Origin: Hormiphora californensis
Taxonomy: Eukaryota; Animalia; Ctenophora
Direction: 5' to 3'
Assembly (NCBI GenBank): GCA_020137815.1
Contig: CM035362.1
Span: forward strand, 6,014,001-6,078,000
DNA length: 64,000 bases
Under the pieces are notes generated by a model, which did no database searches, was not told the DNA's origin, and worked only from the letters and a program-made list of their open reading frames with translations. Below are positions 15,901-21,900 of the stretch, in pieces. Position 1 is the first letter of the stretch. Every line of letters starts with the position of its first letter. A program made the translations under genes and the position numbers.

Positions 15901-18900
15901 GGGGACAGTGGACGTTTGTTGTAGTCACTTGGGATGATCAGCTCAGGGACTTCCAACTCGGGAGCAACGGGTCGTAACTCGGGCAGGTCGTAGTAGTAAG
16001 GCATAGTTGTAATTGGATTTGTTGGTAGTTGTAGAGAGAAGGTAAATGGTGGATGGTTTGAAGTCGCATTGAAAGACCTTTTATACTCTTGGACTACCAA
16101 GGTCCACAAGTTGATGACGACGCTTGTTCCGTCAAGACAAATCGACCAAGAAAGCAAGATGAGAGTACGATTCAGGGACATGAGAGTCAGCTGGTTAACG
16201 ATGAACTCGTCTACAACTGGTTCATGTCACATGACCCGCTAATTATTGCTAATCACAGGTCAAGACGAGATGTGAGCTGCAGTGATCCAGGCTTACGGAC
16301 CTTGTAGTTCACTATCGCATCGCTAATTAGGTCTTTAGTTTTCTTAATCAGCTCTTGTTGAAGGTCTCATGGTCCTATCGCATCGCTAATTAGGCCTTGT
16401 CTCACGACAGTCCTGGTTAAACTTAAGACCCGGGACAATAATTACCCTTCGAACTCACGTTACAAGGTCATCTTGTAGGTTGAAATGTGATCCTATATTC
16501 GATAAACTACTCATATAATGGTAGCAAGATGGAAGAATCAAGAACTCCGACCCCATGACAGTGGGATACTCCATGTCTGGGCTACTCAGCCCACTGACTC
16601 GATACGGCATACGGAATACGATTCGGGAAAGCTTATTAGCAGCGTGGAACGATATGAGACACGATTCAGGAAAACCACTTCACTTACCCTTAAAATGTAA
16701 TTGAGGGGGGTAGATGGGGGTTAAACTTACCCTTAAAATGGCCATGATGGCAAGCCCAGCCTGGTGTCCAGCTATCTTCTTCATATCGGAATCTGTGATG
16801 GATATCGAGGTATTAACCCCTCCTAGGAGAACCTTCGCTCGGGCGTATTCCAAGTCATCCTGAAAAATAAAAGGAATTAGGATGAAATAGCAGGGTCCGG
16901 GAAGGGGAGCATAGTTTAATAACTTAGATCGGACCACTATTCGCGATTATAGTGTTTCCCGGCCAGCAATGTGATGCCTGGTGTTGGAAGAAAAGAAAAC
17001 AGAAAATGGGTAGCAAAAACAGAAGAGAAGAAAGCAAAAAAAGAGGTGAGTCAAGAGCTTAGAGCTAAGGTGACTCAAGAGCCAGGTGATTGAGAGCACC
17101 ATTTGGATGGAAAGGGAAGGCCTCCACTTCGCGCGCCTCCCTGGGAGGCGCGCGAAGTTTATACCCCCTATGTCACCGCGCGTTACGCCATACACCAATT
17201 GAGAGTGTGTCCGCGAGAGGGCCACATGACTCTGATCCCTACTGAGCTGCAGCAGCATATTGTTTTGGTATAAGTTCAATTTGAACTGTTCAATTGTTCA
17301 AACCCGGGGAGAGAGGGTCGAACGATGCAAGCAGCAACACTACTTTATACTGTATGTATCATCTGAACCATTGTATAACGACAGCCAGAGTATACAGGAC
17401 ATTCTCAAATACTTTGAAAGGACTAATCAAGAGAATACAGGCCTGTATACAGGTCTAAACATGGACATGCGAGAGAATCATAAAAACAGATATATTTCAC
17501 CTACCATATCAATAACAGTTTTATCTTTGTTGACAGCCCTCAGGCCCGCCAAATTGACCATTGTAGCTAGCTGTGCTCCCGACATGCCCACAGTTGCCCG
17601 GGCAACCTTTTCCAGATCAGCTTCTTCAGAGAGAGGCCTCTTTTTGGTATGAACCTTGAGAATTTCAACTCGGTCCTGCAGGGGGAGCTAACATTAGTGG
17701 GGATAGTTAACATTAGTGGGGAGTTAACATTAGTGGGGAGTTAACATTAGTGGGGAGTTAACATTAGTGGGGAGTTAACATTAGTGGGGAGTTGACATTA
17801 GTGGGGAGTTAACATTAGTGGGGAGTTAACATTAGTGGGTAATTAACATTAGTGGGGAGTTAACATTAGTGGGGAGTTAACATTAGTGGGGAGTTAACAT
17901 TAGTGGGGAGTTGACATTAGTGGGGAGTTAACATCTTGAGAGAAATCCAGAATTTAGTTCAAAACTCAACAACAGTCAACACAGGAAAATATCCAACTAA
18001 TAAGGAACGATTGTCCCAGTATAATTCTACTTACCCGGGTACAAGGTAGAGACATGCTGACTTTCACATCGAACCGTCCTTCTCTCACTAATGCTTCATC
18101 CAATACCTGAGACATTACAGTGTCATGTGTGACGGTTTTACAAACAAAGCTTCATTTTGATAAAGTTTTGAATCGCAATTTGGGATCCCATCAACAGTAA
18201 AACTCTAACTGATAATGGACCACAGTGATGGTTCTTTCTCTGTATTCTCTCTGTAGGCAGTACATTAGGCATGCCCGGGCGCGGACGCGAACACAGAGAG
18301 AATACAGAGAAAGAACCATCACTGTGGTCCATTATCAGAGTTTTACTGTTGATGGGATCCCATTAATGGGATGCCATTCAGTTAGAGTTTACCCTTATAA
18401 GCCCTACAGATTCTGGATCAAATCTATATCATTTCAATTTAAGTTTACACTTTTTAGTGCGACTCAACTCACCTCAGGATCATTAGTAGCTGCCACAACA
18501 ATCACACCACAATACTCTTCTAACTAGGGTCTCCCAAGTTACTATCTTGGTTACCATAGCAACTCAACTCACCTCAGGATCATTAGTGGCGGCCACAACA
18601 ATCACACCACAGTACTCTTCTAACTAGGGTCTCCCAAGTTACTATCTTGGTTACCATAGCAACTCAACTCACCTCAGGATCATTAGTGGCTGCCACAACA
18701 ATCACACCACAATACTCTTCAAACTAGGGTCTCCCAAGTTACTATCTTGGTTACCTTAGCAACTGCTTTGGTTACCTTAGTAACCAAACTCACCTCAGGA
18801 TCATTAGTGGCTGCCACAACAATGACACCACAATACTCTTCAAACTAGGGTCTCCCAAGTTACTATCTTGGTTACCTTAGTAACCAAACTCACCTCAGGA

Positions 18901-21900
18901 TCATTAGTGGCTGCCACAACAATGACACCACAGTACTCTTCAAACTAGGGTCTCCCAAGTTACTATCTTGGTTACCTTAGCGACTCAACTCACCTCAGGA
19001 TCATTAGTAGCTGCCACAACAATCACACCACAATACTCTTCTAACTAGGGTCTCCCAAGTTACTATCTTGGTTACCATAGCAACTAAACTCACCTCAGGA
19101 TCATTAGAGGCGGCTACAACAATAACACCACAATACTCTTCTAACTAGGGTCTCCCAAGTTACAATCTTGGTTACCTTAGCAACTGCTTTGGTTACCATA
19201 GCAACTAAACTCACCTCAGGATCATTAGTGGCGGCTACAACAATCACACCACAGTACTCTTCTAACTAGGGTCTCCCAAGTTACTATCTTGGTTACCATA
19301 GCAACTGCTTTGGTTACCTTAGTAACCAAACTCACCTCAGGATCATTAGTGGCTGCCACAACAATAACCCCACAATACTCCTCAAAACCATCCATCTCAG
19401 ACAGCAACTGATTAACACTCATCCTGGAACCCCCGCCCATCCCCCTCTTCATCCCCACTGTGTCTATCTCATCGATGAAAATAATGGCGGGAGCCTGTTT
19501 CCGGGCGGCTGAGAAAAGTTGGCGGATTCGGCGGGCGCCCAGACCAACAAACATTTGGTCAAACTCGCTGCCTGTAAAACGTTGTGGAGTTGGTTTGATA
19601 AAAGCGGTTGCCGTGGGCACGAAGAAGAAATATTTTAAGTTTTAATACAGAATCTTCGGCAGTGGTGGGCCTCAAAATAACATAGTTATAAACAATAATT
19701 TGAGAGAGGGAGGAGATTCAGAGAGGTTCAGGAGATACTTTTTTGGTTGTTTTCCAAAAAAAGTATATCATTGGTTTTACCAACCTGAAGCGAAGAAGAA
19801 AGGTACATTAGCCTCCCCGGCAAGACACTTAGCGAGCAACGTTTTACCAACTCCAGGTGGGCCTAGAGGAAATAAATCCATAGTTAGATATCAATAGAAT
19901 GACATACTGCCTACGGAACGTTTGAGGACACATAACGGACACATTGTGGACACATTGAGGACACGTTGGAATATACATATACAGGTGGGCCTAGAGGAAA
20001 ATACAAAATCATAGTTAGATATGGGATTGATACCATAATGAGTCAACTCTGTTCATTTGCAGTATCATTGTGAAGTGGTTACTACTACTACTACTCCGAG
20101 TGTGAAGTGGGTGACAGTGCAAAGAAGTGTTATTTCGTTACCATGGGGACCTTGTTTTGTACGCGAAAAAACAGTCTAACCTGGCAATGGGGACCATGGG
20201 ACAGGCCAGAGGGAAGTTGCCATGGGGATAATGGACGCAATATAATAATGCCTTTACCTGAAAGTAGGACGCCTTTAGGTGCCTTACACCCCATCATCTG
20301 GAATGATTCTGGATCACTAAGGAATGACACGAGCTCCTTCATCTTCCTTTTAGCCACATTATTCCCTGCTACATCATCGAATGTATTGTCAGGGATATCA
20401 GCCGAGAAATCGACCTAGGTGTTTTTTAATTAGTTATTAGTAAAATCGACCTAGTGCGGTGTTTTTTAATTAGTTGTTTGTTTCTTAGAATGAGGCGGTG
20501 TTTTTTAATTAGTTGTTTGTTTCTTAGAACGACGCAGTCACCCCTACACGTCTTACGTCTCAAACAAAAAGGTGATGACATGACCAAAAATATATTTGAA
20601 TTGCTATTATTTGAAAATAATGTATCAGATAGAGAAAGATTTGGCCGCAAAGTTATTAACTCACAGATCCGAGAAGAAAGAGAGAGAGCAAGAGTGTATC
20701 AGATAGAGAAAGATTGATTGTAATAACTCCCACAAAGTTATTTGAAAAGAGAAGATCTTTTGGCCGCAAAGTTATTAACTCACAGATCCGAGAAGGTCCT
20801 TTGGTCCAAAGTTAGCTATGGTTTTGAACATTATATAGATAAATAAACCAGGAAGTACGACCATGCTCATTAATGAGTTGTAGGATTTGATAAACCTTGC
20901 ACGAGAGCTTCTCTTCTCGGACCCAGGCTGTTCCTAAAAGAGTGAGTTGTAGGATTTGATAAACCTTACACGAGAGCTTCTCTTCTCGGACCCAGGCTGT
21001 TCCTAAAAGAGGTTGTTTCTTGTTATTTAGGAACCGGGCTGTTCCTAAAAGAAGAGTGGGATGTTATTCATCAGGAACCGACCGAATCAGGAAATACCGG
21101 TCCCTGATTGGCTGATAACCAGTCACGTGACCTAAATAACGAGTTCTGATTGGCCCCCTCCCAAAGATTCCAACCTGTTGATGGGTGTTATCAGAATGAC
21201 CCCCCCCCCCCTCCCAAAGATTCCAACCTGTTGATGGGTGTTATCAGAATGACCCCCCCCCCCCCCCAAAGATTCCAACCTGTTGATGGGTGTTATCAGA
21301 ATGCCCCCCCCCCTCCCAAAGATTCCAACCTGTTGATGGGTGTTATCAGAATGCCCCCCCCCCCACTCACCTGTTGATTGGTGTTATCAGTCCGTACACC
21401 TGACATAACCAGCGCTCTGTCATACAGATCCATGACCTGAGGAGAAGGCAGAGGTATATGAGGGTTGGGAGAGGGGCATTGGGCATTGGGCAAGTGTTAA
21501 TATCAACACTCTCCTATTATAGGGATTACTTTTGAAAAGTAGACACGATTCCAATTTTCAAGGAATACAACTCTGTAATTCTCGCAATCGTTTTTGCGTA
21601 TGAAAGTTGAGGTATACCCTGATCAGGAACCGACCGAATCAGGAAATACTAGTCCCTGATTGGCTAAAAACCAGTCATGTGACCTAAATAACGAGTTCTG
21701 ATTGGTTGTTTACTAATTGTGTCGGTCGGTTCCTGACCCTGATCAACCTACATCTTTATTCATGGCGTATCGGCCACTATCGACTCTCCTTTGAACGAAC
21801 TTCGGGTCATTTTCCAGGACCTATAGGGATGGATGTTGTATGAACAATACAAAGGGATGGGGTATTCAAGGTGAGCTGCAATTTTAGGGAAATTGAAGTA

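Follow-up and report, generated by a model that had tools for sequence, protein, structure and literature searches.

Copies of an exon end in a splice-donor-spanning array of a ctenophore FtsH-like gene vary almost only at silent sites

Mirages, as described in the lancelet genes Adh3, BflGb6 and BflGb9 (the latter two globins) and PGBD5, are tandem arrays whose units (10-160 nucleotides, nt) run across an exon-intron boundary and repeat the splice site, on the donor or on the acceptor side; their length changes are ascribed to unequal crossing-over, and splicing is reported as normal (PMC3087553, PMC3902484). Human donor-spanning variable number tandem repeats (F7 IVS7, 37 bp; LMNB2, 100 bp; CBS IVS13; 6-16; PDGF) likewise have a first monomer that spans the exon end and the donor, and their downstream pseudo-donors are mostly ignored (PMC1557585). 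Between a gene and its non-functional duplicate, in turn, conversion moves variants, shared polymorphism being a strong indicator of it, and damaging transfers into the functional copy are selected against (PMC3924837). Here we analyse an array of the mirage type in a stretch of 64,000 nt from the ctenophore Hormiphora californensis (assembly GCA_020137815.1, contig CM035362.1, positions 6,014,001 to 6,078,000; hereafter the window, in whose own numbering all coordinates are given), located in an intron of an FtsH/YME1L-like AAA gene. Like the present host, the lancelet is a highly heterozygous marine animal (PMC3087553, PMC3902484).

The array follows the exon at 19571-19336 (minus strand) and consists of eight units of 100 or 121 nt within the next intron, each composed of 49 or 70 nt of intron-like sequence that opens with a donor, followed by a copy of the last 51 nt of the exon:

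19336..19571, minus strand: real exon of the FtsH/YME1L-like AAA gene (Pfam AAA, E 2e-20; six-exon GT-AG model), its last 51 nt (19336-19386) being unit 0
19215..19335, minus strand: unit 1, 121 nt (70 nt of intron part and 51 nt of exon copy), from sequence
19266..19335, minus strand: the unit's intron part with a near-palindromic motif, highly repeated elsewhere in the genome (contig depth, motif matches)
19094..19214, minus strand: unit 2, 121 nt, sole carrier of ACT/TCT, from sequence
18994..19093, minus strand: unit 3, 100 nt, identical in sequence to unit 8
18894..18993, minus strand: unit 4, 100 nt, from sequence
18794..18893, minus strand: unit 5, 100 nt, from sequence
18673..18793, minus strand: unit 6, 121 nt, from sequence
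18573..18672, minus strand: unit 7, 100 nt, from sequence
18473..18572, minus strand: unit 8, 100 nt, from sequence
18459..18472, minus strand: ninth intron part, truncated (donor plus 8 nt), then unique intron, from sequence
18035..18106, minus strand: next exon, in frame with the first donor (six-exon model; the predicted protein P0010 makes the same join)

Three units are thus 121 nt long and five 100 nt, with their ends at 19215, 19094, 18994, 18894, 18794, 18673, 18573 and 18473. The exon ends with the codons TTT GAG GAG TAT TGT GGG GTT ATT GTT GTG GCA GCC ACT AAT GAT CCT GAG, followed by GTGAGT, and the same junction of GAG with GTGAGT is found at all nine exon ends, the units lying head to tail and their first member spanning the exon-intron boundary, as in mirages. 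Both this exon end and the eight copies of 51 nt in phase 0-0, each with TAG upstream and GTGAGT downstream, had been given in a first-pass annotation made from the letters alone, and both were verified; that annotation was silent on the unit's intron part, which is also variable (6 of 49 sites, plus a 21-nt sub-repeat). In a six-exon model with GT-AG ends, joining the donor at 19336 to 18106 and skipping all copies gives a single open frame. Read-through to later donors was ruled out, since units of 100 and 121 nt shift the reading frame.

The copies differ from the exon at nine sites, eight of them at the third codon position and seven silent. Counted as changes, 8 of 10 are silent against the 22-28% expected (binomial P 1.7e-4 if all changes are equally likely, 9e-4 if transitions are weighted 4x), the non-silent differences being TTT/TTA (19384), at the unit edge, and ACT/TCT (19350), in one copy. 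Two of the silent differences, GAG/GAA (19381) and GGG/GGT (19369), are fixed in the eight copies, and alone give no sign of exchange, since a change on the exon side suffices. Differences between copies and exon were therefore rejected as proof of exchange, and a stricter test, restricted to variation among the copies, was added: 6 of 8 changes are silent (P 0.002-0.008). The observation of the first-pass annotation, that the copies vary almost only at synonymous sites, thus holds against the exon and among the copies alone. Nucleotide diversity among the copies reaches 0.22 for silent sites but only 0.02 for replacement sites, with 0.06 for the intron part. Furthermore, there are seven unit types among the eight copies, and the copies are mosaics, with 19 of 66 site pairs incompatible under the four-gamete test (3 of 15 for pairs inside the exon-like part). 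Their distances from the exon are 7, 6, 5, 4, 3, 3, 6 and 5, so that the nearest copies are the most divergent. A simple archive that grows in order from the exon finds no support in these distances and was rejected.

Real exon alleles could be compared with the copies in short-read data from seven runs, none of them recorded as RNA, six of which contain part of the stretch, and which cover two samples: X1 and X3, from which the assembly may have been built, and X5 and X6, from another sample. In X7, tentatively taken for an RNA run, coverage is limited to repeat motifs. Contigs running past 19386 were taken as derived from real exons, and variants are listed beyond about 31 letters from the end of a contig or of the stretch (a rule read off the tables). 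Among the exonic variants listed, 23 of 23 are silent. In X1, record 8 (exon-derived, 19351-19445, second haplotype) carries TAC at 19375, with a depth sum of 234.3 + 1238.9 + 443.6 = 1916.8 against 1916.9 listed, and GGT (19369) and GTG (19366) were assigned to it by distance to the contig end. In X5, the exon-derived records 15 and 18 carry TAC (80.9 + 68.3 = 149.2), the depth sums are consistent with GGT and GTG in records 15, 18, 19 and 20, and the letters in record 17 are those of the window; GGT is also found in record 23 of X6. At least three of the seven silent unit sites (TAC, GGT and GTG) segregate in real exon alleles, in two samples. The proposal that the unit variants equal segregating alleles of the exon is borne out for these three and finds no support at 19381 and 19384, neither of which appears among the listed exon-derived variants. 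Of the sites listed, two only, TAT/TAC (19375) and GTT/GTG (19366), vary both among the copies and among the exon alleles; the chance of both shared polymorphisms under neutral intronic mutation is about 0.014.

Allelic diversity of the gene points in the same direction. Among the contig pieces listed, allelic pieces differ from the window by 46 differences in 810 exon nt, or 0.25 per silent site if all are silent, and by 26 in 697 intron nt (about 0.04). The diversity of the copies by site class thus matches the allelic diversity of the gene, and the copies look like a sample of boundary alleles. For a related ctenophore, a heterozygosity of about 3.2% has been reported, with more single-nucleotide heterozygosity in exons than in introns, which its authors blame on read mapping (PMC8527503). 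Over 19336-20414, alleles diverge by about 0.25 per silent site, against about 0.04 in the short introns between; these introns are AT-richer (GC 0.37, versus 0.56 at third codon positions).

The first-pass annotation had proposed a genome-wide test of the codon-position bias, and the bias was tested window-wide on 28 hand-modelled exons or exon parts (from the array gene, the neighbouring FtsH paralogue and a MIOS-like gene), a copy being a match of at least 19 nt in a flanking intron and some of the frames coming from open reading frames only. Ten of the 28 have such a copy. The nine besides the target give 18 silent to 10 replacement changes, with 20-26% silent expected (P 6e-7 to 2e-5), a count that includes the match of exon 43436-43592 (copy 1.1 kb away, 4 replacement changes), which is probably due to chance. 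Among copies only, four other arrays give 6 silent changes of 10 (6:4, P 0.006-0.03). The silent changes of these replicates include some at the first position (CTA/TTA, TTG/CTG). The skew shows in the two counts, 18:10 and 6:4, but not at 4726-4901 or 42481-42684. The replicates comprise:

58710..59378, minus strand: 40-nt donor array (30 nt of exon end and 10 nt of intron) of the MIOS-like gene, 15 full copies and a partial one; 4 silent, 2 replacement (frame from the open frame and a WD40 neighbour exon, its own exon being without Pfam match)
52644..52890, minus strand: 38/48-nt donor array, 5 copies; 1 silent, 0 replacement
52046..52384, minus strand: 33-nt donor array, 9 copies; 1 silent, 1 replacement at the edge (frame set by Pfam MIOS_a-sol, E 3e-8)
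53165..53240, minus strand: single donor duplication; 2 silent, 0 replacement
2273..2311, minus strand: copy, on the acceptor side, of the 39 nt that open exon 2105-2234 in the neighbouring FtsH paralogue; 5 silent, 0 replacement
4726..4901, minus strand: two donor-side exon-end copies in the FtsH paralogue; 3 silent, 3 replacement (frame from an open reading frame only)

A homologue search with a MIOS exon gave no match at E 1e-9. The array at 8212-9456, in which a 34/35-nt unit containing a hexamer that resembles a donor is present 36 times, is tied to no exon that the gene needs; its units differ by indels, and it was rejected as a replicate. The 40-nt array closes (58710-58750, minus strand) with an exon-end copy, AG and a short open frame, the sequence beyond being of low quality. 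Its intron may be wholly repetitive, which is what one would expect from the duplication model of intron gain. On the acceptor side, repeats were seen at 17682-17934, 51815-51913, 43590-43690 and 10600-10635, namely a 17-mer present 15 times immediately upstream of an acceptor, and acceptors that are repeated two to three times together with the exon start.

Taken together, the array is a splice-donor-spanning minisatellite with the real exon end as its first unit. Its copies are probably overwritten by exon alleles repeatedly, through misaligned recombination, and would inherit silent-only variation because selection leaves only such variation in the exon. The reading that we favour is repeated unequal crossover or gene conversion in a highly polymorphic species, with transfer running one way or both ways. 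A short duplication across the donor, by slippage at microhomology, would have turned the exon end into the first minisatellite unit; under misaligned pairing of alleles, the exon end would then overwrite a copy, and a copy would overwrite another copy or the exon itself. Exon alleles would bring only silent variants, and replacement changes arising in the copies would be overwritten, or selected out on entering the exon; any reverse flow from copies to exon would be purged of replacement changes in the same way. The copies would need no function of their own, splicing would use the first donor only, and exchange could be rare in a large population. A toy simulation of 100 chromosomes, in which sites were unlinked and replacement changes lethal, with Nc (the product of population size and exchange rate) set between 0.3 and 10, gave a ratio of replacement to silent variation of 0.84-1.0 without exchange with the exon, the observed one being about 0.09. 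The ratio fell from 0.69 to 0.15 under one-way and from 0.39 to 0.04 under two-way exchange over that range, and both come near the observed value (0.15 one-way at Nc 10, 0.07 two-way at Nc 3). The earlier suggestion of either capture of exon alleles or ongoing exchange is sustained as a pair, by the shared variants and the matching diversity, but its two members are not separable by simulation. More tentatively, and with the odds against it, exon-end arrays of very polymorphic animals might act as shadow exons: an untranslated genome-wide reservoir that, by two-way swapping, stores and reinjects silent alleles at exon ends, with selection purging replacement changes solely on their transfer into the exon.

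Several points weigh against overwriting by exon alleles. Among the variants listed, only three of the seven silent sites have been found in exon alleles; sites 19351, 19354 and 19357 are too near contig or stretch ends for listing, and the differences at 19381 and 19384 are missing among the listed variants of the seven exon-derived contigs over that part, two of which represent the window's own haplotype. Conversely, no copy was seen to carry the variant that the exon has at 19378. The pattern at these last three sites fits less exchange at the edge of homology, or a true homology starting at 19380, and the edge differences (19381, 19384) may not be exon alleles. Once a change is silent, finding it also in an exon as polymorphic as this one is not in itself improbable, and the phasing was taken from depth sums of collapsed contigs, not from reads. 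No exchange between parent and offspring was seen, and no contig spans the array. Elsewhere in the window, the pair at 4726-4901 stands at 3:3, the plus-strand array at 42481-42684 (putative exon) has no skew, and single-copy duplicates can appear silent-skewed through exon-side change alone.

The closest alternative is an archive in cis, in which slippage makes copies from the current exon end, ordinary allelic recombination replaces the exon allele between these events, and nothing flows back. One-way flow lowers the replacement to silent ratio too (0.15 at Nc 10) and yields shared variants, but the copies nearest the exon are the most divergent and the copies are mosaics. Recombination between copies must therefore take place, and pairing of that kind would be expected to involve unit 0 as well; we regard this account as unlikely. 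The first-pass annotation had also proposed that the copies are used as cassette exons, each adding a 17-residue repeat to the AAA domain, so that coding selection would directly explain the skew, and every copy does have AG before it, GT after it and a frame-preserving 51 nt in phase 0-0. However, the introns would be of 49 or 70 nt, versus 87 nt for the shortest modelled in the window (a small comparison set), the acceptor window has 5 pyrimidines, versus 7-11 at five real acceptors, and the insert would interrupt the second region of homology, which is conserved in FtsH proteins. The 40-nt array is, in addition, similarly skewed though its copies are out of frame with just 10 nt between them, and the predicted model P0010 skips the copies; we regard cassette use as very unlikely.

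Comparably slim is the prospect of an assembly artefact, that is, of haplotype or paralogue exon ends falsely stacked, or of a change of haplotype in the window at the array. In favour of it, indel errors and a raw-looking stretch are present in the window, the array is spanned by no contig and the exon differs from all eight copies at two sites; copy number and order rest on an assembly that has errors elsewhere, the read comparisons having used stretches that lacked the tandem units. Nonetheless, loose ends or joints at 19380-19386 mark the unit junction in contigs from both samples (X1, X3, X5 and X6), record 17 of X6 extends from a unit start across the intron part to the exon, the X1 unit contigs are 2-7 times deeper than single-haplotype contigs, and seven unit types in eight copies are impossible from two haplotypes without mosaics. 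Least credible of all is chance, or mutation bias in neutral repeats picked post hoc: counts are small and the pattern itself prompted the selection of the finding, but replicates that the first-pass annotation had not picked are skewed too, some silent changes are at the first position and the excess survives the 4x transition weight.

The host gene deserves some detail. Exon 19336..19571 encodes part of an AAA domain (Pfam E 2e-20) and the last exon has a weak Peptidase_M41 match, hence the assignment to an FtsH/YME1L-like gene. The predicted protein P0010 (EukProt id sb/3466593) is 100% identical over the exon query and has the 19336-18106 join as well, with about five residue differences elsewhere (by eye), one of them at the junction codon. 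From the style of its id, P0010 presumably belongs to the gene models of the ctenophore Pleurobrachia bachei. FtsH proteases have a zinc-binding HExxH motif; at that position, the protease exon at 16745-16770 (minus strand) reads HQAGL, as does P0010, and from these residues the array-bearing paralogue may be protease-dead. The neighbouring FtsH paralogue has no counterpart, by eye, of the intron that carries the array. The exon-like part of the units begins (19386) two bases past the position of an intron in this paralogue (1956, minus strand; by eye), which is a coincidence or the trace of an older small exon. An intronless homeodomain open reading frame (15189-16226, minus strand; Pfam E 2.5e-11) lies within an intron of the FtsH-like gene on the same strand.

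The near-palindromic motif of the unit's intron part, which we take to resemble the RFX X-box, has 11 matches within the window, and the summed contig depth in X1 is 55,000-185,000 over 19266-19343, versus about 420 in the exon. It occurs at 19266-19335, and also at 5507-5540, 5849-5902, 6769-6912 and 43269-43426, in many small repeats that are very abundant genome-wide. At 10819-13568, inside an intron, a block carrying an 11-nt satellite is present twice in inverted orientation, with the flanks shared. A cluster of zinc-finger-like open reading frames with two retroelement-like ones (by eye from translations) lies at 22000-35300 (minus strand), 27128-29470 (plus strand) and about 46800-49700. 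As to the quality of the assembly, 54400-58500 is homopolymer-rich and raw-looking, a conserved paralogue exon has frameshifts (3284-3401), and 252 nt comprising one exon plus flank stand twice without any difference (7807-8058 and 10330-10581).

What the array offers is intron DNA, most likely untranslated, that bears a codon-level signature of protein selection, which makes such copies a trap for exon prediction and coding-potential tests. Given that the replacement to silent ratio depends, in the simulation, on population size times exchange rate, the ratio among copies could serve as a natural meter of short-tract recombination between an exon end and its neighbours, and with copies at 10 of 28 modelled exons (one probably by chance) the test can be run genome-wide. 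The prediction is a skew in high-diversity species, such as lancelets and comb jellies, and little in low-diversity ones; human silent diversity is far lower, and little skew would be visible there. There is also a bearing on the duplication model of intron gain, as copies kept free of replacement changes stay usable as exons.

Compared with the known systems, the lancelet globin mirages differ in that they were described as homogenisation among copies, not as exchange with the exon, and the main text of that report has no occurrence of “synonymous”, “silent” or “gene conversion” (PMC3087553). Counted by eye, its published BflGb6 alignment nevertheless shows about 17 silent versus 7 replacement changes and 2 indels, and 3 of the 5 differences between two real exon haplotypes also vary among the copies (PMC3087553), so that the silent skew may be a general, overlooked property of mirages. 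The human F7 monomer, unlike the present unit, includes only 4 exon bases, and the abstract and introduction on it concern splice-site choice, not sequence evolution (PMC1557585). With the concerted evolution of a gene and a non-functional duplicate the array shares polymorphisms held in common (two sites here) and mosaic copies, although the role of the paired genes falls here to 51-nt exon ends within a single intron; and, unlike the pseudogene donors of immunoglobulin and major histocompatibility complex genes, nothing here suggests selection for diversity. Neither a silent-site skew nor the sharing of exon alleles in exon-boundary repeats was found in the literature searched, which excluded subscription journals and the 2002 mirage paper; structure and process are known, and their combination with silent skew and exon-allele sharing seems to have gone unremarked. 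The skew is real, beyond chance and replicated in the window, and is probably explained by an established process at work on a structure of known type, within a highly polymorphic genome.

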